Below, in pieces: positions 177 through 56,500 of a stretch of DNA of 64,000 nucleotides. Position numbers and translations under genes: made by a program. The notes below the pieces were generated by a model that did no database searches, was not told the origin of the DNA, and saw nothing but the letters and a program-made list of their open reading frames with translations. The stretch's first letter is position 1. Each line of letters opens with the position of its first letter. Source of the DNA: Amoebophrya sp. A120 (Eukaryota > Protista > Dinoflagellata); NCBI GenBank assembly GCA_905178155.1, contig CAJINV010000011.1, positions 2,652,485 to 2,716,484 on the forward strand. The letters run 5' to 3'.

Positions 177-2807
177 CTAGAAGCCGCTTTTCTGTTTCAT
201 CTTTGCCTTCCCATTTGCGTCGCTGACGTTGGCCCCGAACCGCATGTTGGCCCAGGGAGTATCGTTCCTTACATTTTTGTAGTGGTATGGATTTTCCTCC
301 ACTTTCCGTCCGTGCACGAGGCGCGCGCGCGTGTCTTCTACGCTCGAGTTGGCCGTGAAGCTGTCGTCTGCTTTTATCAGCACGCAGCACACAAACCCGC
401 GGTTGTTTGTGTAGTCCAACGCGGCGCCGACCGAAACGACGTGGGTCTTCTCACTTTCCGTTTCGCCCCACGCCTCGCAGGCCCGCCAGTGCGGGATGGC
501 TTCCAGGGCAATTTGGCGCATCGCCACGTCGGTGCCCGTCGTGTTTGCCGCGCGACCGGGACCCGCAAGGGAAGAGGATGAACTCGAAGAGCCGCCCTGA
601 GAAAAAAGAGGACATTGAGATGATTTGGTTTTGAATGAGATCGCCCAAAGAAATGAAATCTACGTTCGCACAAGTTGAGGCTCGACGATTTTTGACATAT
701 CTTCCAGCTGCTACATGATACTCGTACATCGATGACATCGCAAGAAGAGCACCGGCTTTGTATGTAAGCATGAATTATATAATCATACCTGCGTCGACTG
801 CAACCCGAATGCGTGCGGTATCTCGCCCTCCCAGTGAAAGTGCGATATTTTGACGCTTGGCGGGAGTAACATGTGGTCTGCGAGCGACTGAAAAAAGTCT
901 TTTCTCTCCGCCAATAGCCTTTCGTTTTCCTTCGCCTCCTCCTCCGCACCGACCGGCTTGGTGTTGCGTTTTATGATCCTGTATCCACAGTAAATCTTCC
1001 GTACACGACGTACAAATCTTGTTCTGCATGACAAAAGTTGCCTTCAATCTTAGTCAGCATTACAAGTTTGACACTCGAAGGTAGCGAAATTTGTCATGCA
1101 TTTTGTACAGGTACGGGAAATCTGTATTGCATATCCTGCTGTCCTCGAACACCTGTTCCCGGTGCTTCATTCGGCAGCGCTGCGTCCAAAGGCGCGCTGC
1201 GTCCGCCGCGATGCTGTGGTGGGCGGAATTGAAGCTGGAGCCATGTTGATCCACAGCGAACGAATCTGATTTTGGTCCTGCACTTTCACTCCCATGATCC
1301 ATCTTTCTGCTAATCGTCAAAACGAGCGCTTCCACTACCGCGTCCTTGACCGCCGCCTCGAGATTTCTTTCCTTCAACGAGAGCGCTTCGACATTTGATG
1401 TCATTGCCCCGCTCACGTTGGGAGGTACAAACCAGGACTCTACGAGGGCGCCAGCGGTTCCGGACTGCTCGGATAACTGTTCCTTCTTTTGTGCAGCGAC
1501 TTGCTGCTGATAATTCCCCGCCCGGTTAAAATTTGCACTGTCGGTTAAAACCTTACCCGGGTTCGCGTACACGAACAGCAGATCCCGACAGGTGACCTCC
1601 AAGTCGTCCGGTATAAGCACTTTCGGATCCACTTGCAGCCATCTCCTGGTGCCCTTGGCTTTGGAGATTTCCAGGCAGTATTGGATGCAGGACCTGCCGA
1701 TCAAGGCTTGCAACTTCTGCTCCGGGCTGAAAACGTACAACCCCTGCTCCTGGGCTATTTTCCCCCGCAGCGCGTTGACCTTGTCGAGTATGCTGTTCGT
1801 CGCGGCGCTGCCGCCGGTGCTGGGGGAGGTGGGGACAACGTTGTTGGAGTCTGGCGCGTGAAAACCGCAAAGTTCCAGCATCTTTTCCCCACTGGGGAAT
1901 TGGAGCAGCTCGCGCTTCAACTTGTCGTTCTTCATCGGGATGGACGTGAGACTGCGTGTAGTATAGTTTTTTCGTTTGATAAAAACTTCAGAAAGTGTGT
2001 GCAGCTCAGTACCGCTGCCGATCCATGTCCATGAACAAGAACATTGAAAATAAATCCTGAAAGCGACATACGAGAAATAAGTTTCGGCACGAAAAAGCTA
2101 TGAAAAAAGTACCCTTTCAGCAGGCAGTTGTCGATGAGCACGGAGAGGCAGTGCAGACTCTGCAAACTCGTATCCTCCGTTATGAGTTGCAGCCCGATTT
2201 TTTTCAAAGCTTGACAATGCGCGGACACAAACGTGGCCAGATCGTCCATCACGTCGCTACTGGAGACAGAACCACCGAAACCCGTCTTCACCATGTCCGA
2301 TTTTGCGGCGAACCTGAGATGAGGGTAGCGGTCAGCATCAGCACGGTTTTCGTTTTTGGCATAGCCCATACAAGTGAAATGGGAATACCACAAGACCGCT
2401 GCTGTTCGTACACTACAGCTCCAGTTTTTATTTGCACTTGCAGCTTTTATTCAACCGTAGAAAAAATACGCTTGATTTCTTTTTTTCCGCAGGTCCTCGC
2501 TGTTCACCTTGGATTGCGGCAGGAGGTATTCCCGCAGCCCGGCGACCACCGGTTGGATCCAGCAATAGCCCATATACATGGCTAAAACCAGCAATAACGC
2601 CTGAAACACCGGCGACATTTCGACGCCTGGCATTGGGCCACTAGCTCGGCCGCTGTTGATGTCCATTCCCGGAGGGACCTGATCTGGTCCCAAATTTGTT
2701 CCTGCGTCGGCAGAAGCTGAAGCACCCTGTGGCGGCACGGGGCCAGCACCGGGAGAAGCGCCACCACCCATCATTGTGGGATCCGGACCAACGCCTGGGG
2801 TGCTCAT
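177..2807 (-). CDS. Multi-exon hypothetical protein with an N-terminal TM segment and a possible PUB-like domain
   Basis: ORFs 2451-2807, 1932-2393, 1060-1935, 783-1034 and 177-527 join through GT-AG introns (e.g. 597-788, frame checked) and the introner at 982-1133. IPMKNDKLKRELLQFPSGEKMLELCGF resembles the PUB motif, by eye. Confidence 0.6.
982..1133. mobile_element. Introner family A (non-canonical intron), reverse orientation relative to the other two copies
   Basis: TSD tcctg at 977-981 and 1134-1138; ends tatccacag...gtattgcata. Its reverse complement aligns with 53679-53831. Removal gives FEDSRIIKRN. Confidence 0.9.
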
Positions 2808-3430: not shown

Positions 3431-6400
3431 TCACCCACGACCGCCCCACAGTACCGTGACGTCTACGCCCTTGAAAGTTTCGGACACGGACTCGCCCCGG
3501 ATGATGGTCCCGATGGTTTCTTGGAACGCGAGCAGCGCCCCGAGAAAGAACCCAATCATGAAGACCAGGCAAAAGTTCGGGAAGCCGCTATTCCTTCGCA
3601 GCTTCACGGTGACGTCCGTCTGTCCGAGCACGCTGAACAGCAACAGTTCTCGCTGCTGGTCGCGCCGGGAAGTGAGTTCGACTTCCAGTCTGGAGGAGAG
3701 CACCGAAGAGGCGTCGTCGTCCTCGTGGTAGTACGAAGTGAAATCTTCTGATGTTTGCTTCGACGTTGTAAGGGACGTGTCCGAGAGAATCTCAGACGTC
3801 TGTGAGCCACCGCCGCCTGCGGAGGAGAGAAACTCTGAGTCGTGGTCCTCCGCATAGGCCGCGCCGTCGTCGCGGAACAACTCATTATCCTTGTCCTCTC
3901 TTCCAGATGATCCCGTCCGTAGTTTTCTGTGTTTTCGCTTTCTGGGAGAGGTGGCGGTATCAGAAAGTGATCCGCCCGAGGGGCTTCTGAACTTCACCCG
4001 CGGTCGCGCGCGGGTCGACGGACTTGGACTGCTGCCAGCGCTTAGCGACGCATCAGATTGCGATGGGGTTTGCTCGTCCTGCTGTTGTCTTTCTGGCATT
4101 TGTCGATCAGACGCGTCGATCCTGGCGGTACTCCCGGAATCCACTTGGAATTCCTCTGGGGAAAATTTCACGATAGCCTCATCTAGAAGTACTACAGGCT
4201 CGCCAAGGTCGTTTGTACTAGTGTCATTTGGAGGTGGTATTGCGCGTGCGGCGGACGGTCGTGCATAAGTACCATCAAGAACAACCGCACCACCAGGAAC
4301 CTCGCCACCTCGTGCCGTTCCCCCACTGGCACTGCTTCGACCATCCCCTGTGATCTTCCCGACCCGACTCGGAGTCGTGCCGCTGTGCTCTCTACTTTCC
4401 GGGTGGTCTTTTTGTAACGTCGTCACGCTCGACGTCGCAGCCTGGTCCGGCTCGTCGATAAGCCCGAGCTTCTGCAGCATCCGGACCGCGGACCGATGCA
4501 AAATCGTGTTGCGCCCGAACAAGGTAAACAGCACCTTGGTCGGCAGGTAGAACACCATGCCGATCGCCATGTTGCGCAGCGTCCACGCGGTCGTCGTGTA
4601 GTCCTCGAAAAATTTTGCGCTCTCCTGCAGCCAAAGCTTCGCCCGGTGGATCTTGTACTCTTCCGCGGGCTCGTCGAATTCTGCCAAGACGGCGTAGAGC
4701 TCCGCCTTCCGTTGCTCCACCATGCGGAGCTGCAGGCCCTGGAGAAAAAAACACGCAATGTTCTTCATCGCGAGCGGGGGCCAGAGAGGGGTGGGCGATT
4801 GCAGTGTGATCAGAAACAGGTACATCCGCAGCAAGCCAAACGGCAGGTCGACGAGAAAAAGCGAAATTTTCGCGGACCGCTCCCGCGCACACGTCACGTC
4901 TAGCTGCGTTCGCAGCAGGAAAGAGGTGTGCGCAATGCTGCCGGTGACCGCAGTGGTCGCGAGCGGGTGCTCGTGGGCGGACCGGGTCGAGGCGATCAGC
5001 CCCTCGCCCGCCTTGCTGAAGGTGCTGAAGCCGTGGCTGCGGTCACTGACGCTTTGGCGGTCGAGGTCAGCGTCCGTGGCCGTTGCTCGTCTTGTGGTTT
5101 CTTGTTGGAAATTTTCCGCCATCTGCTCGTATAGTTTTTTCACTTTGCTCTTCTTTTTCTTCTTATTTCTCCGGGACGTCGTAGTTGCGGGGGCTTGGTT
5201 ATCATTTTCGACGTTGTCATCTGTGGTCACCCTCACCTCATCCATGTTTACTATCGCAGAACTGGATGAACTGCCTCCACGATAGCTCGTCAACTGCTTG
5301 CCACTACCTTCTTCCCGCACAAGGCCGGCCATTTCTTGTCGCTCAAACAGCTCATCCAGCAGCGCCCGCTTTGGTCCCTCAACCTTCGAAGGAGTCCGCG
5401 GCGCCGCATTGTAGTTTCCTCTACTCGTGGAGGTTGTGGTGGTGGAGCGAGCTCCTGCTGCGCTAGATGTTGCTGTTGCTGTTCCCCTGGGGAGCGGGAG
5501 GTCAGATTCATCTGCTAGTACCGGATTTACATCTACATCTTCTGGAAGCTCTTGTTCCACAGTAACCACGACGTCCTGCGGGTCAACAACCACAGGATCC
5601 CGCTCCTCGACGTGCTCTTCATCCGCCCCACCTACAGTTCGGCTACTCGACCTACTTCCCATACTCGTCCGCAGCGTCGTCGCCCGCGAGATTTCCGTGA
5701 ATCGCGGATCGTCGACGGCAGAAGTTCCCGCAGTGCCGCTCGACGCCGAGAGTCGAGCGGAAGTCCGGCGGGGGTCTACAGGAACACTAGTAGTACCGGC
5801 GCCAGCTGCTGTGTTGCTGGAACGAATTCCTCTCGTCCCGCCCTGCTGCTCCGGCGTCACCTCGCCACTACCTACGTTGTCGTCTGCTGTGAACAATGTG
5901 GTCGTGTCGGGAGATGTTGTTGAAAACAACTCCATGTGCTGGTCCGGCTCCCTAAAGGAACTACTTCTCCGCAATTCTTCTTCCTCCTGCTCTGCGGCGA
6001 GGCGCTTTTCCGCGGCTCTCTGCAGCGCCTCCTTCCCGAGCACTGCTTCGTGCACCGCCTGCACCGTCTCCACGGGGAGCACACTCCATTGAAACTTCCA
6101 CTCCGCCCCCGGGAAGGACTGCGCGTGGGCGAGGAGAGAGAGAAAAATGAACAGCGGGGAGAGTCTTCGGAAGACGTTTAACGCCTCCCATATCGTGACA
6201 AAAAAGTGTTTCACTGTAAGGGTTTTGCCAGTTTTGCATCACAAGTTCGTATACGCATGACCGAGAAAACTTGTCATGCGAGGTTCCTAAGAGAAAACAA
6301 AGGTAAAAACCCGAAGTCTTGCACGTGTAGCAAGACAAATGCGTCTTTGTTCTATTCTATGCATCACAAGTTTACAGTGAAACAGTTTCTTCTTGCGATA

Positions 6401-7806
6401 TCCCAGTTCTCTAGGACAATGTCCACGTCGAGGAAGTCTTGCAAGCGATATGAAGTGCAAAAGAATCGTACGAAAGTCGTACAGTATTTGCAGTGGTCAA
6501 CACGTATGCCGCGTCCAACGCAACTTTGACTTTCTAGTTCTACCTGAGCATAGCATGACAAATTTTCTTCGCATTTTTGTTCTCAAGAAAATTTGTGATG
6601 CAAATTAAACTACGTACGATACGTTTGCAGAATGCGTAAGCGACTGTACTTCACCATGTTCACCACGTCAACGATGTCCAGCGCCACGTGCCACACCATA
6701 TCTTGGTGCATGATAATATCCGGCGTGGGCATCCCGTGAAAGTGCCCGAACAACGCTTTCTGGGCCCGGAACATCAACGCGATGTACACCACGGACACGA
6801 GGTACAGGCTGACGGAGAGGCTCGCGGGGGTGCGCAACCAGGCGTAGGCGTCCGCGGTGGTGCCAGCGATCGCATCCACGTGGGGGAGGACCTTCAGGTA
6901 CAAGACCACGAATTTCCCGGCCATGAGCCAGGAGTAGCTGATCCAGATGACCGCGCCCATCTTGGTATCCTGAGTAAAAACGTACCCACACCAGAGTCAG
7001 GATGGGGATTTTGCAACACAAACCTAAGAGCTTTGTGAGTCACGCATGACAAGTTGCGCGATGCAGTGTAGTGCAGGTTAGCACGTGCAGCCGCATCACA
7101 GATTCATCTGCTCATCCTGTAGTTCACAGCATCACAAATTCCAAAACACGACTGGAAATGGTTCTCATGGGGATGCGCGTTACAAGTCTTCCTGTCTTTG
7201 CAAATCTGCATTACAACTCTGGCGTGGGTACGTTTTTACTCAGGATACTTGGCCGCCTTCTCCGCGGAGTAGTTGTGGAGCATGTAGAGCTATCCTGTGC
7301 AAAAGTATCGTACTCGTACTAATTGCAAATATGCATGACAAATCTTCTTCCTAAGGTAAAACAGCATTACAAGTTCTACTTCTCTTCTTGCCAAAATTTG
7401 TAATGCAATCTATACTAGTACGATACTTTTGCAATGCATAAGAGCAGCTGGCAACCTTCGACGAGAAAGAGCGCAATCACCCCGTCCTCCGTGATGTAGT
7501 AGTATCCTGTGCAAAAGCATCATACTCGGTCGTTTAAATGCAAGTCTTGCATTACAAATCTTGTTCCCAAGGCAAATCTGCATTACAAATTTTATATCTC
7601 ATGCTGAGGAAAGTTGTAATGCATTTATACGAGTACGATACTTTTGCACTGCATAAGTAGTAGAAAAAGACGAAATTCAGCACCCACGATTGAAACCCGA
7701 TCGCGATCACGGAGACCAAATAGCTCAGGTTCATGAAATTCAGCAGTCGGTCACACACGGTTTGGTGCACCTTGCGCTTGTAATTGAACGCGCGGTTGCC
7801 CGACAT
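3431..7806 (-). CDS. Multi-pass membrane protein, TMEM121/CECR6 (or TMEM26)-like, with long low-complexity insertions; 6 exons, about 1121 aa
   Basis: Removing five introners (each plus one TSD) gives a continuous frame: exons 7656-7806, 7441-7497, 7248-7285, 6639-6960, 6401-6443 and 3431-6185. Motifs ALDIVDVV and FLVDLPFGLLRMYLF...MKN. Confidence 0.7.
6191..6400. mobile_element. Introner, single copy in window
   Basis: TSD tccca; TIR tatcg...tgtttcactgtaa / ttacagtgaaaca...cgata. Frame restored (LENWEALN). Confidence 0.9.
6449..6638. mobile_element. Introner family D (diverged)
   Basis: TSD agcga; ends tatgaagtgcaaaagaatcgtacg...cgtacgatacgtttgcagaatgcgta. Frame restored (KYSRLQDF). Confidence 0.85.
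6966..7247. mobile_element. Introner family B
   Basis: TSD cttgg; near-perfect TIR of about 32 bp, tatcctgagtaaaaacgtacccac(a/g)ccagagt. Full-length similarity to 31837-32115. Confidence 0.95.
7291..7440. mobile_element. Introner family D
   Basis: TSD agagc; TIR tatcctgtgcaaaagtatcgtact / agtacgatacttttgcaatgcata. Confidence 0.95.
7503..7655. mobile_element. Introner family D
   Basis: TSD agtag. Its reverse complement closely matches 47585-47729. Confidence 0.95.
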
Positions 7807-11027: not shown

Positions 11028-12515
<1,488 letters not shown>

Positions 12516-22527: not shown

Positions 22528-23589
22528 TCAGAATTGCGGCGACCGGAACTCGATTTCCAGCTCGTGCGCGTCTTTTAGTTCCAGATGGTGAAAGGAACAC
22601 GCGTCCCCTATCCGTTCCTTCAGTTCCTCGATGATTTGCATCTGCAGGTCCGCGTAGCGTCGGTGCGTAAGTTCGATGAACGTGTATTTTTTCAGGACGT
22701 CTTTGGCGTCGAGGTCGAACTCTTTTTCCAAAAACCCGCGGCCAAAATCTCGCCCGAACGTTTGCCATATCTCTGGCGCCCAGTGCAGCTTGATTTTCAG
22801 CGCGCATCGCATGTGGATCTGAGGTATGATGTTGGAAGCACGTAGGTGGGCTATCTCGAGCAACATCAAACCTTGGTGCACAAAAAAACGCTTGTTGCAG
22901 CAGAAGAAATCTATCGTTACCTCGATATCCTTCCCATCTACCGTCTTGTAGGTGCGTATAAAGCGCTTCAGAACAGGACTTAGCCGCATGGACACGTAAC
23001 TGTCGCGGAGGGGGTTTGTTATCAGCAGCATCCCGCCATCAAAAACGTGGGGCTGGGCCTGATAAAAAATTTTGTTTGTTCATCTTGATCCATCTATAAT
23101 GTTCTAGTTCAGTTCGAAAAATCAAACACCGGCGGGACCAAGTTCACGAGCAGATAGAGAAACTATAATTGGAAGGATTGTATGTACAAGTACCTTCCCG
23201 TCATTGATGAGGAGTCCGACACAGCCTGGCGATATTCTCCTGACAGAGAACCAGCAGGCCGCGGCCACACTGACCGTGGAAGCGAACATGAGAAAGTTGA
23301 CGCGGTTTCGTTTTATCGCGTAGATTATGCATTGCAAAAGTATCGCACTCGTAGTAATCGCATTTATGCATTATTTCCTTCTCAAGCTAAATCCGCATTA
23401 GAAATTCCATTTCTCATGCTGAGGAAATTTGTAATGCAGTTTATACTAGTTCAGTTCTAGTACGATGTTCTTTTTGCATTACATATAGATGGGGCGTTGG
23501 AAGGTCCGGGCGAGCAGGTACCTGCTGATCTTCGTACCGAGGACAAGTTTCTGTCCTCGGGAAAGCGTGGCGGGAACCGGGGCTGACAT
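22528..23589 (-). CDS. Divergent prohibitin-like (SPFH/band 7) protein
   Basis: N-terminal TM segment, then KTVDGKDIE and PEIWQTFGRDFGRGFL...ELKERI, matching the prohibitin pattern. One introner and two probable GT-AG introns. Confidence 0.65.
23326..23485. mobile_element. Introner family D
   Basis: TSD tagat; starts tatgcattgcaaaagtatcgcactcgta. Removal gives QRPIYAIKR. Confidence 0.9.
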
Positions 23590-27300: not shown

Positions 27301-30300
27301 GGGGTTTCTGCCGTTTCGCGACGGTGGAAAGCCAGTCGAGCGGGAAGCGGTGATTCGACGCTTTCTTCTCGACCAGGTTCTTGACCAGCACCCTGACGGA
27401 CTCCCGCTCCGTTAGCTTCTCTTCTTCGTCCGGGTAAAACGTCGCGAGAAGATTCATCAGGTCCCCCCGGCCGGGGAGCGTCTTCACCCGGACCGGAGAC
27501 ACCGGCCCTGGCGTGATCGGCGGGGGTCGATTGGATCCGGGGGACGGAGGTTGGCCTTGCAGAAACGCGGCCGCGAGGGAAGCATCCATCAGTGGAGCAG
27601 CAGGAGAGAAAGCTTGCTGCGGTTGTTCGCCGAATGCGGGCATCGTGGCGCCCATCCGCGACGCCATCGCTGGTGACATCGAAGCGCCGTAGGCACCAGG
27701 CGCCATGGACGCGGCCATTCCGCCACCCATCGGCGCCATGGACGCCATTCCCATCGGCCCCATAGTCCCCATATTCATCGCTCCTGGCGCCGTCGATGCC
27801 ATTCCTGCTCCGGCCCCCGCCATTGACGCAGCAGCTGCCATCGATTGCATCCCCGCACCAACAGCGGGTTGCTCCGTCCGCTCGATGCCCCAGGCGGAGG
27901 GCAATTTTCGCCAAACTACGAACTCCTGCTGCCTCGCGATCGGCGAAAAGCCGCCCGTTCGGCGGAAGAAGAAGTGCACGCCGGAGTTCCCGCTGTAGGC
28001 CGCGTACTTTTCCAGCCGCTCGGGGTGTTTCACGATGCTGTCCGACCCGGCGACCAGCACCTGATCGCCCTTCTGCAGCCCCATTCGGTGGCCCCAGGAG
28101 CCGGGGGGCGGGTCCTTAGACAACACGTTCGTCGATCCGTCGGAGTGGAGTCCAGAACTAGTATCGCCCGTTTCCGACGGTTTGTAAAACAACTGCAGGT
28201 ACTCGTGGACGTACTTCGCTCGGTAGAAGATGAAGGAGCAGGGTTTATCAAATGTAAAAGTGTCTGGGTCTGGAAGAATGCAAGACTTGTCACGCATATT
28301 TCTCATGACCCATGACGCCTGTAATGCATGACCTAGCATCGCAGATTTTTAGAGGGCTTCCTGATGCACCTTCCGCATGAGAAATGCCCTGTCCGTGTAG
28401 CACAAATTGTACCTCTCTTGCTGGTCATGCAATACAAATTTTTTTAGAGTCCAAAAACAGCATGACAAGCATGCATTCTTCCAGACCCAGACATTTTTAC
28501 ATTTGATAGGGTTCTTTTTTCTTCAATTTCCCCGCGGACGCCAGCAGCACCGCCCCCTCGATACTGGTCCCCTGCATGGTGGCGACGGACGTAACCCTGG
28601 TTCCCGCAAGCAAAACGATCTGGTCGCCGACAACAATGCCCGCTTTCGTCGCTCTGGAAGGGGTCTCGCCGTCGGCAGCTTTGGGGATGACGGTTTTCAC
28701 CACCACTTTTGGGAACGCGGACCAGTCCAGGATGAGCCCGAACAGCTGCTCAAACTTCTCCCTCGATCGTTTCTCCGACTTCATGATCTCGTTGTCCAAG
28801 CTGCTCTGAATCCAGCCTATGAAACCGTACTCCCGCAGATTCTTCGTCGACACCGTTTCCGCAAAGGTCGCGTACATGTAGGGCGCGTTTGGATCTGAAG
28901 GGGTAGCAGCTGCTGCGATAGATCCTGAAGCTGCGGAACCTGCTGCAACTGATCCTAGAGCAGCGCTGGCCAACATTGCGGGCGACTTCGAGGAATCTTG
29001 TGCAGGCGCAGCAGCCATGGACTTTGTCGCGGCCGGCGCCGCACCCCCGGCGTTCGCCGGGTGCGTCGTCGCTTTTCCCTGTATCCCCCATGCGGACGGG
29101 AGTTTGCGCTGCAGGTTGGGTTCGTGAGTGCCGTTTGCCTTATGAAATCCACCGGATCTGCGCAAGAAAAAATCGACGGACTTCTCCCCATTTGCGTAAT
29201 TTGCCAGCCGCTCCGGATGTCTCACAATGGAATCCGACCCGGCGACCAGAATCTGGTCGCCGATTTCCAACCCGACCAGAGCCGCCCACGTACCCGGGTC
29301 CGGCGAAGCAGAGACCGTGTTCTTCTCCCTATCGGATTTGATCCCGACGCCCATACTGCCGTGCGTGCTTTTCGAAAACCGCAACTGGATGTATTCCCCA
29401 ACATACTTCTTCCGGTAGAAAATGAAGCTGCACTGCTCCCCCTTCTTAATCTTCGACGCAGAGAGTTCCAGCACCGCTCCCTCCGCGCTCGACGCTTTCA
29501 CTTGCGCGACGTTCGTCACCCTGCCCCCGGCCGCGATTACCAGCTGGTCCCCCTCCACGATTCCGGATTTCGCCGCCCGGCTCGGCGTCTCGCCGTCGGC
29601 GGCCTTGGGGTGCACCTGCGTGACAAAAACCTTCGGAAATTGCGACCAGTCGAAGGTGAGCCCAAACAGCTTCTCCAGTTTCTCCTTGCTGCGTCTTTCC
29701 GATTTCATGATACCTTCGTCCAACGCGGAACTCTGGATCCACCCGATGAAACCGTATTCGCGCAGCGATTTTGTACTCACCGTCTCGGCGAAAGTTCCGT
29801 ACATGAACGGCAGTGCCTCCGCGCTCGAGGGCGGCGGAGAGGTGGAGCCGCCCCCAGCGGTCGATCTGTTCGCGCCAGCTCCTGGGCTGGCTGCGCTGGC
29901 AGCTGCACTGCCAAGAACGGCGGATGCAGCAGTCGTGCTGGCCATTGCAACGCCCCAGGCGGACGGCAGTTTCCGACCCAGGTCCGGCTGGTGGCTGGTC
30001 GTTGCCGAGTCAAAGCCGCCCGAGCGGCGGATGAAGAAGTCGCAGGAACTGTTCCCACTACAATACCCCGCGAGCCTCTCCGGGTGCCGGACAATGCTGT
30101 CGTTCCCCGCGATCAAGACCATGTCCCCAGCTTTCAGGCCCACTTTCGCCGCCCACGAACCCGGCGGTGGATCGGCCGACAGAGCGTTTTTCTCCCCGTC
30201 CGACTCGATCCCGACCGGCAGACCGGAGGAGCCGGAGTAGTGTAATTGGACGTATTCCCCCACGTATTTCTTTCGGTAGAAGATGAAACTGCACTTCTCC

Positions 30301-31526: not shown

Positions 31527-34500
31527 CTACTTTTTCTTCCCTTCCTTTGCCTGCCCGGATTTCGTGTAGAAGTGCATCAGCGTTTGCTCGCACGTCAATG
31601 CCGGTTCGTCGTCATCGTCAACATCCTTTTTCCTCTCCTTATCGAAAACCCTCGGGTCCAGAACGGTCGTCAGGCTCGGGCGGAAGAAGAACGGACTGGA
31701 ATACCGTTCCGCCGTGGACAAGTTCACGACCCGGTGGATGGTCGCTTTTATCTTGTGCCGGGTCCACTGCGCCAACATGGAACCAAAGTTCACCACAAAC
31801 GCGTGCTTGATTGGCGGCACGTGAATCCAGGCGTGTTATCCTACGCAAAAACGTGCCCACACCATAGTCAAGATGGGGAATCTGCAACACAAGTCTCCAA
31901 GTTTTGGGAGTTCTGCATGATAAGTTTCCATCTGCAGTGTAGTGCTGGTTAGCAAGGAAAGCCGCATGAGAAAGCCATTCACTTATCCTGTTTACAGCAT
32001 TACAAATTCCAAAACACGACTGGAAATGCCTCTCAAGGGGATGCGCATTACAAATGTTCCTGTCATTGTGCATTTGCATGACAACTCTGGGGTGGGAACG
32101 TTTTTACAAATGATACGTGTCGCTTCGCGTTCAGCACCTGCAGGCCGCCGACCATGTCCTGCTATCAAAAGGAAAAATCCCCCCTCCCCATATCGAAATG
32201 GAAATCTGTGACGCGGGATTTGGGTACACAAATCGGCTTTGCCTTGCAGTGAAAGACTGCAACCAGATGCAAAGCCGCAGCAGGGGCGCTTTGGTGTAGG
32301 CGCGTGGCAAGACAGGCGCATCCTCCGTAGGCCGCCCAGCATTACAAATTGCCTTCAGAACGCGGCGGAGTTTTTGGATTCGCCTTCTTGCAACACAGAG
32401 ACGATTTGGCGTCTCAAATCAGCATCACAAATTTTAAGAAGTGTCCCTTTTCGATATGGGGAGGGGGGATTCTTCCTTACGATACCTGCGCGAGCATGGT
32501 CAGAAACCCGTAGTCCACGTGCGCGCCGATGGAGACTTCGTTGTGGTAATCCTGAAGTGGCGGGTAGTGCAGAATCCGGTGGTGACAAACGGCGTTGTCG
32601 CAACTCCGCCGGAGAACTTGGTCGTCGTAGTGTGCGTCATCTTCAACTTCTTGTTCAACCTCATGATCCCCTTCTGCGAGAACTTTCTGGGAATCCTCAA
32701 ATCTCGGAGGCGGTGTGGAGCGACTTTTTGAAGATGATGTTGACCCATCCGCCCTATTGCTGTTGTTCTGCAGCCCGCCCGTACTGCGGGTATGCCTGTC
32801 GGCGTGGATTACCGACGTTTTCACCTTCAAGTCACACGCGGTTCCGAGAAGTTCCATTAACTTCAGAGAGAGATCTAGCACCTGCTCTTGGTACCGCCGC
32901 ATGACAGGAGTGAAGCCCGGCACCTCCTTGTCCGGCATGTCCGACTCCTCCAGCCAGCGGCCGCTGCTCGCCGCTTTCAGATTCGCGGCGCTGCGGGACC
33001 CGGCCGTGTTGCCATTCATGTCGAATATGCATTGCAGAAGTATCATATTAGTATGAATTGCATCACAAATTTTCTCAAAAGGAAAAATGGAATTTGTAAT
33101 GCTGATTCACCTACTAGAAAGGCATATTTGTCATGCTTAACAGACTGCGCAGCTCAAGCCCGGGGGGGGTCCGGGGTCGAATATTTTGTCATGCATATTT
33201 GCAATTAGTACGACCGAGTACGATACTTTTGCAATGCATATCGAAGCCTTCCTTGCAATCCTGCCTCGCGACGGGGGGAAGGACCTGCTCCTGCGGGTTC
33301 ACGTCCTTCACTGGGTTCGCGTTGGGTTTATCTTGACTGGCGGTAGTCGTGTCCTCGTCATTTGTTCCAGTGGTACCGGCGTAAACGACCCTATCACTAG
33401 TCGCGCCCACAACTTCCTTTGACGTCTCGGTCGGTATCCTCAGCGCCCCCTCGCCCTCGTCGTACACTTCGTCCAGGTTTTCCATCCCCTTGCCGAAGTA
33501 CCCCGTCATCGCCTCGCTTTGGTTCATCAGGTATTTTTCCTTCGTTTTCTGGGACAAATCGAAAAACACTTGCGCGTTCTTGAACACGGCGTCCATCAGC
33601 TCCGGTTCGACGGAGTGGTTCACGAGGTAGAAAAACCCGATTTCCTTTGCCGCTTTCCCCAACAAGGGTAAGAGCTTCTCTCTCGGTAAGCTGTAGTCGA
33701 TGATCGGCACGGCCTCGAAGTCGAAGGGGTTGACGATCGCCGCTTTTAAATCTTCCGGCAAGTCGTTCGGTAGCACGGGCTGGATGTTCTTCAAATGCGA
33801 CGCTTTAATGGTCCCGCCCTCGATCGCGATGGTGGACTTGTGGATTCGATCCACTAGCACGCGCTTATCTTTCACAGCATCCGGGTTAATCTCAACCAGC
33901 AGATCCGGCTTCCGTCTCAGCCCCTCGATTTTGTCGACGGAGGGAGCGAAGTAGATTCTGTCTGCTTGTTGTTGGTGTTGTCCAGGCTTCATCTGCCCAG
34001 GCGCACGCGGCGGCGCGGCGTATCCGGAGCGGGAGAGAACGTTCGACGCGTTGTGGTCGGAATCCGGGGACTGCGTGCCGCTAAATTGGTCTGCTTTGGG
34101 GGAGCCGATTCGACCTCGCGAGTCGGGGTGAAAGGCAAGGTTGTGCGGCGTTGACATCGCTTTCTGTAGGGGCTGAAGGATGAAGGAGTCTTTCTTCATG
34201 TTATCTTGTACACTACTTGTTTGGGCTGTCGTGCGTGTGCTTTCTTCTCCTGTTGCACGGGAAGGCCCTCCTGCTGCTGGGAAGACTTGCTGATGATTGT
34301 TGCCTGCCCTATGAATATTCGCAGGCTCCTCCCGTGAAGTCGTAGGCGACAACGCTGCAAAGGAGGGATCTCCGGCGCTACTGGATGGCGCGGGCGATCG
34401 CGCGCCACCGGCTTTGAGCATACCGGCGAGTTGCTCCCGGTTCGCCCCGGCAAGTGCATTCGCGTTGGCCTGGTCAAACGCGGTCAAGTTGTTCCCAACC

Positions 34501-47400: not shown

Positions 47401-49107
47401 CAAAAGTTCAGCTAACATCACATCAAAGAACATCAGCACTACGTAAACGTAGATGATCATATGCAAAAACAAACTGTACTTATGTCCGGGTGCACGGGGC
47501 TGGTCAGTGTTCTTGTCGTCACGGTGCTTGCGAGCGAGCTGCCCATGGGACTGGAGGCGGAGATCGTGTTCGTCGTCCCGACAATATGCATTGCAAAAAT
47601 TACGCACTCGTATAAATGCATTACAAATTCCCTCAGCATGAGAGATAAAATTTGTGATGCGGATTTACCTTAAGAACAAGGTTTGTAATGCATGACTGCA
47701 ATACGAGTACGATACTTTTGCACAGGATAGACAAGACCTCCTCCGGCGCTGTTCATCTGGTCCGGCGACAGAGTCGGTTTTTGCCCGGTTCCGTCCTGTA
47801 TGAATTGCAAATGTATCGCATTCGTATAAATGCATTACACATTTCCTCAGCATGAATGTGATGCGGATTTAGCTTCAGAAAAAAAATTGTAATGCATGAT
47901 TGCCATTACTACGAGCACGATACTTTTGCAGAGCATATCCTGTGCCATCACGTACTTCAAATGTGCGTCCGGCTTCACATCCAGCTCTATTCTCCCCGCT
48001 CTCTTGCCGATTCCCTTCACCTTCGCCTCCATCCACTGTTTGTGCGTGTTGCTCCAATACCACACCTTGTGCCCGACTTGGAAGTCTACCTGTTTGTTCC
48101 TCGGTGCAGCAGCAGCTCCTACAACCCCGTTCGCGGCGACGAGATTCGTGCTGTTTGTTGTATTTGCAGTCTGAATCACCGGCTGCGAAATGGAACTACT
48201 TATAATTGTTCCACCAAAAGGTGCTGTGGACGAACTGGACACTACAGTCGTGCCCACCTTTACCCCGGCTGCAGCGGCCAACGTGCTCGTGATCAGCGGT
48301 GCTCCTCTTGCGCTGGTTGGCGACGGGCTGCTGTGCTTCGCCGTAGTCGGGTTGGAAGAGGAGGCTTCGCTCGGAGCAGGCCCGCCGACGGATTCCGGGG
48401 AGAGCGGCTGCGAACTTTGCCCGTTCACAGTAGCGGGAGACTCATGAGGGGCGGCAGTGACGGTGGAACCTGATGGGTTGCAGACTCTATATAGTTTGGC
48501 TGGCTTTTGCCAAAGCGACCGTCGGAAAAGGCGACTACATGAAAGTAACGTGCATGCAAAAATCATCTTCAAGAAACATCAGAGTGATTATATGCACTAA
48601 AACTACCAGAGTTGCGAATTCCGCCACTGCTGGCAGACGCTACTACCCTTGTCTTGACAGAAGACGCTGCGCTAGTGGTCGAGGGTGGGAGGTGGAATGT
48701 CACCAAGTCCGGTTTGGCTTTTGGCTTGATATCGAGATCGTAGGAGACCTCATAATTTTATAGTCTACGTTCTGGTATGAAAAAGAAAATTTGAATTTTC
48801 AACGTGGAAATAAAGCACCCTAAACAGAGTTTTTTTTTCGTTGGTGGTTATCGTCACGAAGAGCACATGATCCTGCAAATGCAAGCAACAATACCACATT
48901 GCCCTGATCGTCGTAGTTGGTATTTTCCAGCTTTGCCTGCATGGACTTATTGTGCGTTTTACTGAAGTAAAGCACGGTCGGGAAGTGATTATTATTCTTC
49001 CCGCCCGCGGCTGCTCCAGCACTACTACCACCTCCCAGCTGCCCAAGCGACGCAGACTGCGACGCAGCCAACTGTCGAGCGGTTACGTTACCGCTTTGCA
49101 CCATCAT
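44479..49107 (-). CDS. Multi-exon protein: Tudor/SH3-like N-terminal domain, long S/T/A-rich region, C-terminal atypical (Bud32/RIO/APH-like) kinase domain
   Basis: GGLNKGIY, IIKVV, HGDVQPSNV (across a GT-AG intron), LIDMGG and AFKEGY; FQVGHKVWYWSNTHKQWMEAKV. Two introners. 5' end uncertain. Confidence 0.65.
47585..47729. mobile_element. Introner family D
   Basis: TSD gacaa; opposite orientation to 7503-7655. Confidence 0.95.
47799..47937. mobile_element. Introner family D
   Basis: TSD tcctg; internal deletion relative to the neighbouring copy. Confidence 0.92.
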
Positions 49108-50353: not shown

Positions 50354-52530
50354 CTACGCAACCGGAATCATCGCGGGCACCTCATCCTCGATCCCCAGCG
50401 ACAACTCCTGCTCGTACTGTAAGATCGCCAAGTCCAGCTTCTCGTGCCAGGTCTGCCACTGGAGTCTCGATGTTTCCCGCTCGTCGTGCAACTTTTCCAG
50501 AGCTTTCTCCACCTCGTTGACTTCGACGTTCTCCCTGACTTGCGCATTCTCCTTGTCTAATTCCTGCTGCGCTTCCTGGATCCGGTCCTCCAAAACCCGC
50601 ATTTCCGCGGCGACCTGCTCCCGCTCCCGTTGCTTCTGAAACGCGACCTCCTCGATCTTCGCGGACAAGGTGACGATTTTGTCCCGCGCTTCGCGTTCCT
50701 CCCGTTCGGATGTTTGGTATTCCTGGCGATTTTCCTCGAGCTCCTGCTGAAGGGAGTCGGATTCCAGCTCCTGCTTGTGCGACTTCTCAACCGTCTGCTG
50801 GTGCTCCCGGACCCGGTCGAGAAACAGGTTGCAACGGGCGGTACCAGTTTCCGCCTGATAAAACGATTGCGTTTTTACTTTCGAGCCTGTTTCATCTGCA
50901 TTTTATCATGCAAACTTGAAGCAAAATGAAATCGCGTCACAGTACGCTGACGCTACATCCGCATCAACCACGACTACTATGCATTCACACCAGCAGGCGA
51001 CGACACAAAAAATACACTTACACACCAATGGCACCATAGTACGGACTCACCTTCGCTGTTTCCTCCCCCAGCTTGTCGCAACTTTGCTGCAGGATCTTGA
51101 TCCGCTCCGTTTTGCGCTGACTGGCTTCCCGGAGCTTCTTCACGTCGGAAACCAGTTGAGCCGGGTCCATATCCGAAATCACCCCCTTTTTCATCGCCGT
51201 AATCGCGTCCTCCAGCATCCGAATTTCCCCCGCGGCGTTCTCCATCCGCTCGTTAGTAGAAGAGGTGTCGCGCTTGGCTGTGTTCGTGTGAAGCAGGTTT
51301 CGCTTTGAATCATCGCTACGTCAACTACGTGCATGGCGGTACATTTACCAATCTCTGCATTTTCCTCCAGTTCTCAACTACCTGAAGCATCAACTCTTAT
51401 GCTACATGCAAGAAGCTCTCCCTCGAGAAAGTGCTCACGAACGAACGAACTACGAGAAGACAAAAAGTATACCATCATCCATGGCCGCTTCGATCTGGAA
51501 GATGTTCAGCCGTTCCATCTCCTGCTTGATGGTCCGTTCCTCGCTCAAATACCGCTCCACGGCGGCCTTCTCCTGCGCCAGCTCCGCTTCCTGCTGGTCC
51601 ACGTTCTCTATCCTCTGCAAAACTATCGCACTCGTATAAATGCGAGTCTAGCATTACAGATCTGCTTTCTTACCTGAAGCTGCATGGCAAATTTCGTTTT
51701 TCTTCCAGGAAAAATTTGTCATGCCATTTGTACGAGCACGATGTTTTTGCAATGCATATTCTCCTTCAAACTGCGCATCGCCTCGGATGTTGTAGCAATC
51801 CGCAGGTCCAGCTCCTCCACTACACGTTGTTGCTCATGCTCGTTCTGGGACTCATCCTCCCGAAACCGGCAGAAATTGATCAGCGCGGACAGGTTCCGCC
51901 GCAGACGCTTGCCCTCGGGCTGATAAGTTTTTTCAGGGGGATATTTTCGCACTCTGTAGTAAGCTCCTGTCGACTCAACCTAGAACTACACAACTGGCTG
52001 TCTAAGCTGCATCAAATTCATGATCTATCACGCATGAAGACAACAAGATCTGTATATACCTTGACGATATCATTCAACGAAAAGTCCCCAATGCCGGCGA
52101 TGTTTGCCAGATGCTGGATAGTCCGAAAAACGCACAAGAACCGCGTCGCATCCTCGTACAAAGTCGGGAAATTCGTTACGTTCCCACCGCCAACGCCACT
52201 CCCTGTACTGTTGTCGTTCGTGAGCAATTCGTGCCATGGCATGCGCCGAATATCGGAGGTGGAGGTTAAGAATTCCCAGAATGCGATGTAAATGTCGAGG
52301 ATGCCGGCTGGGGTTTGGTGGAAATTCGGCGCGGAGGAACTACTTGCTCCGGCGGTAGTACCGACAGTGACCCCATTGATTTGGTTCTCGTAATACTGCT
52401 CCGTGACAGACACCGTGACGTAGTTCTGCGGCTTTTGCAACACATCGACGGTTACGTCGGGGAATTTGTCGCTGTTCTTCAACACCTGAACAATCTCGTC
52501 ACAGGTCAACAGGGGGAAGATGTACCCCAT
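50354..52530 (-). CDS. NUF2: Kinetochore protein Nuf2
   Basis: FPLLTCDEIV, GIGDFSLNDIVK-PEGKRLRRNLSALINFCRFREDE, followed by a coiled coil. One introner and several GT-AG introns. Confidence 0.88.
51609..51758. mobile_element. Introner family D
   Basis: TSD ttctc; ends tatcctctgcaaaactatcgcactcgta...tacgagcacgatgtttttgcaatgcata. Confidence 0.93.
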
Positions 52531-53201
52531 GTTCGATCGTGCAGTAGCGGCCAACGGGGGGACAACGAAACTGCTCGGGTTGTTCCGGCGGTTTTAGATG
52601 ATCAGCACGAGATTGTTCAAGAACCCCACCAGTGCCGTCCTTTGTTGTACTTGTAGTTGCGTCCACGATCGACGTGATTTCAAACTGATGAATTTGTTTT
52701 CTTCAAAAAACGCGCACGCATGTAAGCTCGTACTTCTGAAATACCTGTTTGAAGCTTTTTTTTGTTGTTTTCGACCCGGTAGTACGCCATCTACTTACAA
52801 CTTCCACTGCTGTAGGCTCCAAAAATCGTAACGACAACGAGGCAGACCCGACGAAGAAGTTGCCGACGAACTACACGAGATACGAAAGGGACATAACAAT
52901 TTTCACTAACTCGCTCGTGGAAGATCGATATCGAGCTCAGTTTGGTGTCGATCGGCTCATTCTATCCTAAAATGGCTATGTAAATTGAACACCAGAACAT
53001 TCCTAAATCTCTAGCCTCGTGCCCCCATCGATGCGACCCTTTTCGTCTTTTTTCTTCCGTCTTTGACCGCACTGTTGTTGCATTTGCAATTCTCAGTTTC
53101 TCTGCGTCCCTGCTTCACAATCACGTTTTATCTTTCACGATACCATGTCTTTGATCCCGCTGTCAACACGCAGCGCATTGCCACAGCTACCCGAAACTGA
53201 A

Positions 53202-53351
53202 CTAAACCAAAAACACATAAAATAGTTTGCCTGAACTGAACTATCTAAAAAATCTGCCTGATTTTGTCAAAGTATTTATAACGGGTCGTGAAATTTGCCT
53301 TTTACCTTTATCTAACACTTGTCAAATGAGCTAAACCAAAAACACATAAAA
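53202..53351. repeat. 21-bp direct repeat pair ctaaaccaaaaacacataaaa
   Basis: Copies at 53202-53222 and 53331-53351, in the spacer between the coiled-coil gene and NUF2. Confidence 0.8.
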
Positions 53352-53569
53352 CAGGGATGGTAGCTTTCGATGTGGCTTTACATGCGATGAAAAAACGAGA
53401 ATTATTTTCTGTGTTGCTGATACACAACTGTGGTGAAACTTTGAATTCTCGTGCTATCGTGAAGTAAAATTGTACATTCATTCGGTTCTTCGTGAAGCTC
53501 CTCGCTCATAAGAATTGCAATAAACCCTCCTCTTCGCCAGACGGAAAGAACATCAAACTTGACAGCAAT

Positions 53570-56500
53570 TTAGGGTGCGGATCCCGTGACGCGAGACGTC
53601 ACATCCTCATACTGGTGGTCCTTGGCGTCCGCTCCCTTCTCGCGGGCTTCCATCTCCATCGTGTCCTTCCCGTCCAAGTATGCAATACAAATTTCCCTTA
53701 CATGTACAAAATGCATCACAAATTTCGCTAACTTTCAGTGTCCAACTTGTCATGCTGGCTAAGATTGGAGCCAAGTTTTGTCATACAGAGACAGCATCTG
53801 TACGTGTACGGGAATAGCTTTACTGTGGATACGAAGACCAAATCCTGGTTCGACAAGACGTGCTTCACTTCGTCCAACGTCGAAATCTCCTCCGCGATGG
53901 CCGCGAACCGCGCCTGGGACCCCAGCATCCAGTAGTCGCAGCCGGGCTGGAGCTTGTTGAAAGATGCTAATAATCCTGTAGTCCCGTCCGTGCCGTATAA
54001 TTTCTCCCGCTCGGAGGCGTAGTCGGTCTCTGCGGAGGTCTTCTTGGCTTCTTCCTCCGCCTCTTTGGTAACAGAGTCATTCCGCTCCTTTTCCTTCCCA
54101 CCGATGATGGACTCCGGGGTTTCAATCGTGGTGACCATCATGGACTCCTCCATCGGGGAGGCGTTACCGATGGTCTTCACCATCTCGTCCTGCTCGGCTT
54201 GTAAATCGGTGATCTGCGTCGTCCGGTCAGTCTTCTCGTTGTCCATTTGCGAGACAATCCCGTCCAGCATGGTGATCACCGGCGCAAGGGGGTTGGAGGT
54301 CTTCTTGGTCAAGTCGCCCTTGCTGCCCTCGTTGAACCGGCTGGTCTTCTCCGGCTTGTACTTGCGAAGCTCCAGAATGGCCTTGCGGACTTCACCCAGA
54401 GCGGTGGTCAAATCGTCCTTGATGGCTTCGAGGCTGTAGATACGGTAACAGACGATGACGAAGATCGAAAAGTACAAAGCTTCGATTGTACTACACATGA
54501 TCTGAACATTGCGTAGTCGAGCCATCAGGTCGCTCTCGTTACGATTTACGAATTTTACTAGGCTTAAAATGCAGAGTGGATTTTCAACAAAATTTCTAAA
54601 TTTGCAATTCGACTAAAACTGGTGACGTAAATGTAAACAAAAATATACTCCTTCTTGCTTTCCTCGAAAATTTCGGTTTTCTTTCTCTTTTCCTCCATCT
54701 TGTCGGCGATTTCCTCGGTCAGCTTTATGAGACTGCACAACTCCCCCGTCCCCTCATTTCAATGGGATAAGCAGCAACACAAGTGCTGGCATAAATGCAG
54801 CTTTTGCATGAAGAATTCGCGACCGATTCTAGCCCTGGGTCGGCTTGCGAAATCTGTCATGCAAGATGTGCCAAAGAGAAAAGGGCGGATTTGGTATTTT
54901 GCATGACAAATCATGAGGGGAAGGGGGAGTTGTGCACTGTCATAAGCTTTTTTTGCTTCTCATTCTCCATCTCAATGATCTCGGTGGAGGCTCGGATTTG
55001 CGCGTCTTGCCCGTCCATCTGTTCGGCAGCCTGTTTGATTGTTTGTGATGCGTAGCCGCTACGCTAAAAATTTAGCCTGTTCAATACAATTATGTTTTTG
55101 TCATGCAAAACCAACTAACACGAGCACTACCTGCAATGCACCAAACCACTACTAATACCGTCTTAGCGTCTTCGATCAGCTTCTTCGAGTCGACTCTGCA
55201 GTGCTCCACGGAGGTTTCGATGGACTTCTTTTCGTCCTTCAACTCAGACACCTGGTCGGAGATCGCGGCCATCAAGACTTGAATAGCCGTTTCGCGTTCC
55301 CGGGCGAGTTGCAGCTCCTTCATGGAGCGGACCTTCTCCGTTGTGATAGAGGCCTTCTGCAGGAAGAAAGCCGCCTCGTACTCCTTGTCGTCCTCGTTCT
55401 TCTGGAATAAATCCCGGTTGTCGTCACTGTGGAGTTATCAAATGCAAAACAGCATTGTGCTCGTACTAATTGCAGTACAGCATGACAAAACTCCCTACCT
55501 GCCTGTTTCTGCATGACAAGTGTCATTTCTCTTGGAAAAAGTTTGTATATATGCAATTACTACTAACACGATGCTTTTGCAATGCGTAGGAGGATTTCAA
55601 CCGCTTTGTCGATCGCGTCCTCCTGCGCCATGGAGTCAGCAGAGAAGGTTTCGTACTCGGTGTCCTGCTTCGTCTTGTTCTCGTCCATGACCTTGTCTTC
55701 CGCATTATGCAATACAAATTTTGCGCACATGTACAAACAGCATCACAAATTGGATCAACTTGGAAGAAGCATTTTGTCATGCTGAAGAGGTTTGAAGGAA
55801 AGTTTTGTCATGCGGAAGCCGCATTTGTACGTGTACGGAAAATTGCCTGTGGATACGCATCCGCGTCGGCGATTTCGCCCTCCAGTGTAGTCTTCAAGTC
55901 GGTCAATTCCTGCGTCCGTCTCGCCTTCGCGGCGGCCTCCCCCTCACCCGCTTGCTGCTGCTCCTGGAGACCGGAAAGGGCTTCCTTTAATTCTTTGATG
56001 AGCGCTTCTTGTGCCGCGACGTCCTTCTCGTGCTGCGTTGTTGTGTCGATCTCCTCCTTTTTGTACTCGTTTTTCAGGGTTTGGATCAACTCCACGATGG
56101 AACCAACTTGGCTGCTGTACGCTTCCGGAGCCTGCTTCTCGAATTTCAGCATGGCGATCTGCTGCGCGGGAAGCAGCTTGGCCTTGGCGAGGAGGGACTT
56201 CAGGGTCTTCTGCTGGACAAGAAGGGCTGATTTTATATTTATTTTTGATTGAGGTTTTATAAATTTTTCATAATTAAAGCGATCATCACCATACCGCCGT
56301 GGGTAATGTTTTGCACGATTGCATACGGCACCTTCAAAATTTTAAACCATCACACCGTCCCGGAAAATATTATCCACGATGCGTCTGCGGGCGTACAAAA
56401 AACGCAAGAACTAACGAGAAAATTATCCAACAGTACTCTGGCCTTGGATCTTCTTCTCCGCATCTGCTAAGGCGGCAATCCCCGCCTTCAAATCTGCCAT

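Follow-up and report, generated by a model that had tools for sequence, protein, structure and literature searches.

Results

Elements and host genes in the window

The window, by which we mean the whole 64,000-nucleotide stretch of the Amoebophrya sp. A120 genome analysed here, carries all its host genes on the minus strand; coding-like segments number 37 on the minus strand against 2 on the plus, and both plus-strand segments are shadowed by stronger minus segments, which bears out the gene orientation given by the initial annotation. The genes are interrupted by short elements, most of which run from TAT to ATA, with terminal inverted repeats (TIR) and target site duplications (TSD). Among 22 TAT..ATA stretches in the window with an exact 5-nt flanking repeat, 16 have a TIR matching at 11 or more of 20 positions, against a mean of 0.6 and a maximum of 2 in 50 shuffles. 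The elements, named hereafter by first coordinate, are:

982..1133, minus strand: family A element, in opposite orientation to 53679 and 55706; 5-nt TSD; intron of the gene at about 180-2807
6191..6400, minus strand: TAT..ATA element of another family; shares its host gene with 7291
6449..6638, minus strand: element with sense 5' end TAC; shares its host gene with 7291
6966..7247, minus strand: 282-nt element, family and orientation as 31837
7291..7440, minus strand: family D element, orientation 1; P0006 product and homologues
7503..7655, minus strand: family D element, orientation 1; homologues with gaps of 1-2 residues near the junction
11564..11684, minus strand: element within a tubulin gene; excision restores an alpha-tubulin-like frame
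23326..23485, minus strand: D-like element, orientation 1; host frame weak (margin 2.6, below cut-off)
28246..28508, minus strand: 263-nt element in a PDZ-repeat gene; excision gives 1323 aa against 875
31837..32115, minus strand: 279-nt element; joint removal with 33026 and 32163 extends the frame
32163..32484, minus strand: 322-nt element; joint removal with 33026 and 31837 extends the frame
33026..33240, minus strand: longer element; TIR of D type, orientation opposite to 7291
47585..47729, minus strand: family D element, orientation 2 (inverted); RNA-contig arithmetic
47799..47937, minus strand: family D element, orientation 2 (inverted); RNA-contig arithmetic
51609..51758, minus strand: family D element, orientation 1; RNA contigs skip 51604-51758 (155 nt)
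53679..53831, minus strand: family A element; TSD mismatch at sense position 4, with the upstream copy in mRNA
54726..54944, minus strand: 219-nt element; RNA skip of 224 nt
55436..55588, minus strand: D-like element in orientation 1, its sense 5' end reading TAC; RNA contigs skip 158 nt (ambiguity 4)
55706..55855, minus strand: family A element, oriented like 53679; RNA skip of 155 nt, 55701-55855
62832..62959, minus strand: family D element in orientation 2; TSD mismatch at position 3, with the upstream copy retained

Removing 33026, 31837 and 32163 together gives a frame of 1045 aa against 768. The tubulin gene interrupted by 11564..11684 we take, from its recognisable sequence, to be of the alpha subtype.

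Inverted copies in families A and D

The initial annotation held that the same element occurs as an intron in both orientations, and the inversions that it described are confirmed. In family A, 982-1133 faces the other way from 53679-53831 and 55706-55855, matching both as reverse complement; self-BLAST of the window aligns 981-1133 in minus orientation with 53832-53679 at 83.4% identity (E 2e-34) and with 55856-55706 at 73.4% (E 4e-21). Copy alignment places 7291, 7503 and 51609 of family D in one common orientation (mutual identity 72-79%), inverted relative to 47585 and 62832, and minus-orientation self-BLAST matches join 7290-7440 to 47730-47585 (78.8%), 7499-7655 to 62963-62832 (74.7%) and 51763-51604 to 47580-47734 (72.5%). 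Global identity in the same and the reverse orientation is 57 and 83% for 982 against 53679, 61 and 79% for 7291 against 47585, and 64 and 75% for 7503 against 62832; element copies compared with their own reverse complements give 52-71%. Families A and D form one superfamily (62-68% identity by self-BLAST). Element 62832 lies outside the range 982..55855 originally given for the finding, yet is part of it.

Exact removal from RNA

RNA contigs skip exactly the element plus 5 nt at all five listed element joints (51609, 53679, 54726, 55436 and 55706); at 53679, contigs X1 and X2 skip 53674-53831, 158 nt, with an ambiguity of 1. The 10 canonical skips listed all read CT..AC on the plus strand (GT-AG on the minus), and a T run precedes 57533 in the RNA contigs. 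The RNA-covered stretch holds eight elements, five removed by listed joints and two by arithmetic, the eighth being 62832, for which no transcript was found in the RNA contigs. Element 47585 is absent from the 15 joints listed, and RNA-contig size and bin depths fit its removal only: in X1 removal predicts 15.76 and 15.8 is seen, where retention would give 11.7. The corresponding values for 47799 are 13.71, 13.7 and 17.6. The raw-read runs X11 and X12 cover no element.

For the opposite orientation, removal is read from this arithmetic at 47585 and 47799 and from database proteins and homologues at 982 and 62832; P0001, P0005 and P0006 are predicted proteins and not independent transcripts. 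The spliced peptide of 982 is present in P0001 (residues 441-464), and three of three homologues align gap-free across the junction; the spliced product of 62832 with the upstream base is entirely contained in P0005. In the gene of 7291 the product of five excisions equals P0006 letter for letter, and retaining any of the five elements cuts the 1121-aa frame to 77-215 aa (77 aa for 7291 itself, whose junction is gap-free in 13 of 13 aligned homologues). Element plus TSD is not divisible by three in 14 of 19 elements. Joints, arithmetic, proteins and homologues agree that the element works as an intron in both orientations, as first proposed.

Where TSD copies differ, the duplicate that remains can be identified. 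The upstream copy is retained at all three informative junctions, two in RNA (53679 and 55436, the latter differing at position 1) and one in a database protein (62832). Removal is therefore directional, although the element DNA is symmetric.

Orientation in related metagenome loci

Orientation was tallied in at least 141 metagenome loci (the listed loci) plus the window; these loci are without RNA, are linked to the window by element-level similarity only and may not be of the same species. A locus search of the viral_contigs database gave 0 matches. In the listed loci and window, all 14 families with at least three members occur in both orientations; they take in 198 of 227 strand-called elements, and their minority orientations total 80 of 198 against 80.7 expected at 50:50. 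Family D alone stands at 41:46 (95% CI 0.36-0.58). Tabulated against host strand, as the initial annotation had suggested doing genome-wide, orientation in these loci and the window shows no bias. Strand calls in the listed loci are not random, since 262 of 273 within-locus pairs and 187 of 194 comparisons of element with locus-level calls are concordant. An apparent bias in family D among the best strand calls (12:27 at margin >15, but 43:53 at locus level) is not counted as such; in this family the call margin varies with orientation (p=0.008). Family 9 stands at 0:4 at locus level.

The TSD is exact in 287 of 363 elements of the listed loci. Of 33 mismatches, 23 hit codon position 3 (35 of 52 in another count), a share above the maximum of 0.48 expected of a fixed junction (p 0.0003-0.01), and this excess hints that the junction register may wobble. 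Codon preference could not distinguish the exonic TSD copy.

Splice signals

The initial annotation argued that removal cannot use a strand-specific branch point or pyrimidine tract. No strand-specific interior signal was indeed detected; the deduction that such signals go unused is unsupported, because the TIR places a copy of the last ~28 nt on each strand. On either strand, 197 of 227 elements have a U-run at -14..-11 (listed loci and window). In the listed loci, TRAY is found at a distance of 15-60 nt from the 3' end in 150 of 227 elements in sense and 151 in antisense, near our own estimate of 4-mer chance (~57%), and YTRAY in 33 and 36; k-mers of 4-6 nt show no significant difference between sense and antisense after correction, and pyrimidine content of the last 40 nt is 0.531 against 0.535. 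The organism's own 13 GT-AG introns have A-rich 3' ends (pyrimidine 0.485, A 0.44) and no pyrimidine tract, so the elements are not exceptional in lacking one; 12 of the 13 begin GTA.

Recruitment of GT/AG from the TSD was considered and rejected. A G[TCA]-AG pair is possible in 19 of 175 exact-TSD elements of the listed loci against 20.5 expected, without enrichment, and the TSD contains or adjoins an AG in 84 of 175, where 88 are expected. At 51609 and 55706, where RNA shows the junctions, there is no GT/GC-AG pair in any register.

Ends and stem

Element positions 11-13 are A in 197-214 of 227 elements (listed loci and window). In the listed loci, none of 163 copies shows a change in the sense 5' TA, while the 3' end has 6 (p=0.03), an asymmetry based on 6 events, with another count finding one 5' T1 change; position 3 has 6 changes at the sense 5' end and 2 at the 3' end. 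Stem positions 8-20 are paired in 174-219 of 227 elements of the listed loci, TIR positions 4-7 being mostly unpaired. Folding predicts 8 or more of the expected terminal pairs in 99% of elements in sense and 98% in antisense, without difference in terminal pairing (p=0.99), and folding energy is slightly lower in sense (125 of 227, p=0.015).

In the family D stem of the listed loci, sense-strand changes keep G·U pairing 70:32 against 209:214 in the interior (p=6e-4), an excess found after the fact that stands at p=0.07 without position 21, where changes keep G·U in both orientations (13:2 and 14:3). The excess is all A>G (57:21), C>T standing at 13:11. Outside family D there is none in the listed loci (55:61), and when all families are taken together, G·U mismatches at positions 1-20 are as frequent as A·C (143:148).

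Discussion

Proposed mechanism and alternatives

The TIR presents nearly the same ~28 bases at either end, whichever way a copy faces, and orientation is unbiased; the signals needed are therefore confined to the ~28-nt TIR and the duplication. The symmetric signals invoked by the initial annotation survive in this form, as symmetric ends, while the DNA-level mark that it also allowed is unneeded and disfavoured. We lean towards the view that TAT…ATA transposon copies with 5-base duplications, in both orientations, are removed together with one duplicate, probably by RNA splicing that reads the TIR. A DDE-type transposase would insert non-autonomous copies irrespective of gene direction, and the element plus 5 nt would be removed exactly, as RNA shows at five sites and presumably at the rest. 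Since the upstream duplicate is kept at the three informative sites, the 5' cut would fall either exactly at the first TA or one base ahead of it, and the 3' cut would follow the last ATA by 4-5 nt. A relaxed, reportedly U1-less spliceosome may take N|TA for the usual GTA donor, and the TIR stem (positions 8-28) with its U-run would set the 3' site by distance and not by AG. Such donor mimicry is suggested by the canonical introns, 12 of 13 of which begin GTA, and by the unchanged sense 5' TA. Most spliceosome proteins and U2/U4/U5/U6 are present and U1 was not found, according to Farhat 2021 (PMC7789003).

It is possible, though we think it unlikely, that a non-spliceosomal, hairpin-guided cut-and-ligate system measures from the TIR stem and leaves only GT-AG introns to the spliceosome; such a system has been proposed for euglenid nonconventional introns (PMC12501133, PMC11282704). 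The missing dinucleotide signal, the failure to find U1, strong predicted stems both ways and the family D wobble bias are consistent with it, as is the requirement of Euglena for a paired motif and spacers; however, the invariant sense 5' TA fits the canonical GTA donor, the G·U signature is missing outside family D, and MITE-derived non-canonical introns of Fritillaria are reportedly spliceosomal. We are similarly doubtful of a dedicated, orientation-blind, dinucleotide-free reaction that measures from the RNA stem, with a register free to slide within the 5-nt duplication and both duplicates under coding selection. If true, any insertion of the superfamily in any exon, either way, would become an instant silent intron, and the reaction may remove thousands of Amoebophrya transposon introns.

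There is a slim chance that each orientation has its own conventional branch site and acceptor, in the interior or TSD, like the introners of Polarella and Aureococcus. TRAY and AG are widely available in the listed loci, but TRAY is near chance, YTRAY occurs in only 33 and 36 of 227, AG does not exceed expectation, 51609 and 55706 lack a GT/GC-AG pair in any register, and no orientation bias is seen here whereas all Polarella classes are biased. An RNA polymerase II template jump, the nascent TSD re-annealing to the second copy past a DNA hairpin so that no intron RNA is made, would be orientation-blind, suits the many exact TSDs of the listed loci and predicts the retained upstream duplicate (3/3); it is equally improbable, given that mismatched TSDs, one near the repeat's 3' end, are still removed at depth 578, that RNA contigs carry element-containing sequence from other loci and that the sense-strand wobble bias points to RNA. 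The elements' TA-bounded ends resemble those of ciliate IESs, which are cut from DNA; excision of this kind at the expressed life stage is very unlikely and was rejected, for two DNA-type runs hold 0.97-0.98 of the 51000-57000 words against 0.52-0.54 for RNA-type runs and, by these word shares, appear to retain the elements, and the choice of duplicate tracks the direction of transcription; moreover, elements would presumably be lost from an organism that has no separate germ line. Direct repeats around a hairpin are also the classic layout for artefactual template switching by reverse transcriptase, but to explain the skips in this way is hardly credible, and we rejected it: a frame of 1121 aa shrinks to 77-215 aa when any of five elements is retained, homologues run colinearly through the junctions, and most elements with their TSD (14/19) are not a multiple of three.

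The orientation result bears on how Amoebophrya, with >60% non-canonical introns and no detectable U1 (PMC7789003), splices its transcripts. Unbiased orientation explains how these transposons could invade exons at no cost, and mismatched duplications, scored in RNA reads that already exist, offer a ready route to locating the hidden junction throughout the genome.

Comparison with known systems

Outside Amoebophrya, DNA-transposon introners acting as introns either way are known from Polarella glacialis (ILE classes 1, 2, 3, 6, 7, 8 and 10) and Aureococcus anophagefferens, but these use G[TCA] and AG sites that they bring along or recruit, and every class shows a preference for one orientation (Roy et al. 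preprint, 10.1101/2020.10.14.339549); here there are neither G[TCA]/AG sites nor orientation bias, and we did not find the unbiased, dinucleotide-free form in print. Euglenid nonconventional introns (Nomura 2025, PMC12501133; PMC11282704) share the MITE-like build, a TIR stem near the ends, TSD-like repeats, the lack of GT-AG and pyrimidine tract, and, on the proposed model, a spacer-defined cut, whereas their N3CDG…CH'GN5-6|R signature is missing here (G stands at position 6 in 11 of 227 elements, listed loci). The non-canonical introns of Fritillaria borealis likewise share a MITE origin, TIR and TSD; they are reportedly handled by a changed spliceosome that keeps U1, with dominant AG-AC/AG-AT ends (PMC11282704, PMC13326754), in contrast to the absence of dominant ends and the reported absence of U1 here. 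IS3EU/GingerRoot DNA transposons (PMC10045372) have TA..TA termini in common with our elements but usually a 6-bp TSD, against 5 bp here (RNA skips are element plus 5). The elements lack U2-type GT/GC-AG ends and are MITE-like in being short, with TIR, constant TSD and random orientation (listed loci and window).

The elements correspond to the published A120 introners of Farhat 2021 (PMC7789003); a window protein is 100% identical to P0001, which is labelled Amoebophrya sp. A120. These introners are described as having inverted repeats that start with TAT, seven variable bases and an A run, direct repeats of 3-5 nt and a hairpin, with no conserved splice dinucleotides and a border position called unknown. 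Window elements match in their TAT-start TIR, A run at ~11-13, 5-nt TSD, removal without GT-AG and repetition in families. Element orientation is not tabulated in the available text of that paper, which uses 'orientation' for gene blocks only. The elements themselves are already described; what is new is the 50:50 orientation count, the register read from mismatched TSDs and the asymmetry of decay between 5' and 3' ends.

Element copies and host genes

The inverted pairs described in the initial annotation are real and far above chance, in the following families (single numbers are start positions).

982-1133: family A, on the opposite strand to the next two copies
53679-53831: family A, inverted relative to 982-1133 (83% identity, E 2e-34)
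55706-55855: family A, inverted relative to 982-1133 (73%, E 4e-21)
7291, 7503 and 51609: family D, all in the same direction
47585, 47799 and 62832: family D, inverted relative to the preceding three (66-79% identity over aligned stretches in the window self-comparison)

Every copy has the form TAT…ATA and is bordered on both sides by a 5-nt direct repeat (TSD). Terminal inverted repeats (TIRs) of at least 11/20 occur in 16 of the 22 TAT…ATA stretches with a direct repeat, against 0.6 in shuffles; the window total is 20 elements once mismatched repeats and TAC ends are counted. Host genes lie on the minus strand throughout, as had been claimed: all 37 unshadowed coding-like segments are there, as are all Pfam matches, which were obtained for six of 15 window protein queries, the other nine being without a match. 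A protein labelled Amoebophrya sp. A120 matches the exon adjoining 982 at 100% identity, and the elements are of an already known class in an already known organism.

Removal from RNA and coding frames

Two contigs from one sample, X1 and X2, whose RNA status is an automatic guess and from both of which GT-AG introns are absent, omit the element plus 5 nt at 51609, 53679, 54726, 55436 and 55706 (15 of 21 joints listed); no skip of 47585 or 47799 is among these listed joints. The size and bin depths of X1, two canonical introns being assumed, fit only with both of the latter removed (predicted 13.71/9.92/15.76, seen 13.7/9.96/15.8), and three alternatives miss. Both family D directions are thus removed, one directly by an RNA skip and the other by arithmetic.

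Predicted database proteins, which may share one annotation source, agree. The peptide spliced at 982 is present in P0001, with homologues colinear across the junction in 3/3 cases, and P0005 includes the product spliced at 62832. Removal of 6191, 6449, 6966, 7291 and 7503 yields 1121 aa identical to P0006, while retention of any one of them gives a stop at 77-215 aa; the 7291 and 6966 junctions show no gap in 13/13 aligned homologues (35 found). This membrane-protein gene (3431-7806) holds its five elements within 1.5 kb, two of them separated by exons of roughly 40 nt, and has a weak CECR6/TMEM121 match under the Pfam cut-off. Separately, an element at 11564-11684 lies within a tubulin gene, presumably of the alpha subtype, and its excision leaves an intact alpha-tubulin-like protein.

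Element orientation relative to the host strand

A 21-base TIR pattern found at least 141 metagenome loci (404 kb); the unique elements number at least 363, 17 of them window copies (shuffles, 0-3), and manual addition of two RNA-shown window copies gave 365. Strand was confidently called from codons for 227 of the 365, with agreement in 262 of 273 within-locus pairs. The tally of orientation against host strand proposed in the initial annotation, run on these loci and the window from DNA-based strand calls, found 14/14 families in both orientations (198 of 227 elements), with zero inconsistent edges in the family grouping. Family A divides 3:6 and family D 41:46 (38:43 excluding window copies), and the pooled minority count over the 14 families in the loci listed and the window is 80, where 80.7 is expected under 50:50. 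By locus-level strands family D stands at 43:53 and 13/14 families are two-way; the best-called family D copies split 12:27, which tells against even orientation. Orientation independence is well supported, and we regard it as highly probable.

Candidate signals and the register of the cut

The initial annotation held that removal cannot rely on a strand-specific branch point or pyrimidine tract. This stands for the interior, where no difference in signal between the strands was found; it goes too far in that a symmetric copy within each TIR is possible. Sense 5' and reverse-complemented 3' ends show no difference at positions 4-45 (smallest corrected p 0.49), pyrimidines make up 0.531 vs 0.535 of the last 40 nt on the two strands, and 33 vs 36 of 227 elements have YTRAY at a distance of 15-60 nt from the end. 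Of 175 exact-TSD elements, 19 admit G[TCA]-AG in at least one register (20.5 expected). At least three U are present at -14..-11 in 197 of 227 elements, on either strand. Since an element carries the same TIR sequence, U-run included, at its 3' end in either direction, a branch site and a short U-run of symmetric kind may serve as signals. The 13 canonical introns examined (e.g. 54434-54648, 56227-56436) begin GTA in 12 cases, end in YAG or GAG, and are A-rich ahead of AG with no pyrimidine tract. One of them, 55031-55158, bears the elements' subterminal motif and is possibly a decayed element.

Where the duplicates differ, at position 4 of 53679, position 1 of 55436 and position 3 of 62832, the upstream base is retained in mRNA (the first two) or in P0005, which sets the 5' cut at TA or one base ahead of it and the 3' cut 4-5 nt beyond ATA. 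Detection that put no constraint on the ends yielded 313 elements, of which 171 were called; in the 163 of these whose TSD copies differ at no more than one position, T1/A2 is altered at 0/163 sense 5' ends vs 6/163 3' ends (p=0.03), and position 3 at 6 vs 2; a separate earlier scan had one 5' T1 change. The asymmetry fits N|TA read in the manner of GTA. Of 33 lone TSD mismatches (metagenome loci and window), 23 occupy the third codon position and 21 are synonymous, above the at most 0.48 and 0.46 expected were one copy free intron and near expectation for both copies coding; the register may slide within the repeat.

We lean towards a relaxed spliceosome that would read the symmetric TIR. Hairpin-guided removal without a spliceosome is less probable. 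Stems are predicted for both element directions, with TIR positions 8-28 paired and 4-7 mostly unpaired; across the full element set, G·U and A·C mismatches balance at positions 1-20 (143:148), position 21 being the sole outlier among 30 (40:11, corrected p 0.002), in both family D directions. At 21 nt from the 3' end of family D elements, the sense strand shows A>G 4-6 times as often as the mirror change, whichever the orientation, and wobble-keeping changes stand at 70:32 in the stem vs 209:214 in the interior (p=6e-4). This excess is entirely A>G and is absent from the other families (55:61); as a post-hoc, partial sign it would reflect selection on RNA pairing or an A-specific process.

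Other features of the window

61510-61511, minus strand: spliced-leader-like end in raw reads, joined at AG; its last five bases are those of the dinoflagellate spliced leader end, and another part we take to be adapter
57533: poly(A) site in raw reads, flanking a PP2C gene together with 61511
59342 A>C and 59348 T>C: in about 10% of reads of run X11, one mate direction only, probably artefact
27786-30687: 3-4 diverged coding repeats of about 0.9-1.2 kb with PDZ domains
42755-44035: low-complexity frame, GC 70%, without match in the Pfam search

Comparison with known systems

The portions available of Farhat et al. 2021 (PMC7789003) describe Amoebophrya introner elements with inverted repeats from TAT, an A run and 3-5 nt repeats, report U1 as not found, and leave the exact element border undefined. 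A statement on the orientation of Amoebophrya elements was not found in the parts of the literature covered; Huff 2016, Roy 2023 (journal) and the Gozashti datasets may bear on it. The comparison also took in Euglena, Fritillaria, a dinoflagellate review and IS3EU. In the sections available, Gozashti 2022 admitted opposite-orientation pairs in its introner-matching method and Gozashti 2025 places integrase-like TIR introners in A120. According to the part seen of the Roy et al. preprint (10.1101/2020.10.14.339549), Polarella introners act in either orientation, Aureococcus being cited likewise; they differ from the elements here in having G[TCA]/AG sites and an orientation bias in all classes.
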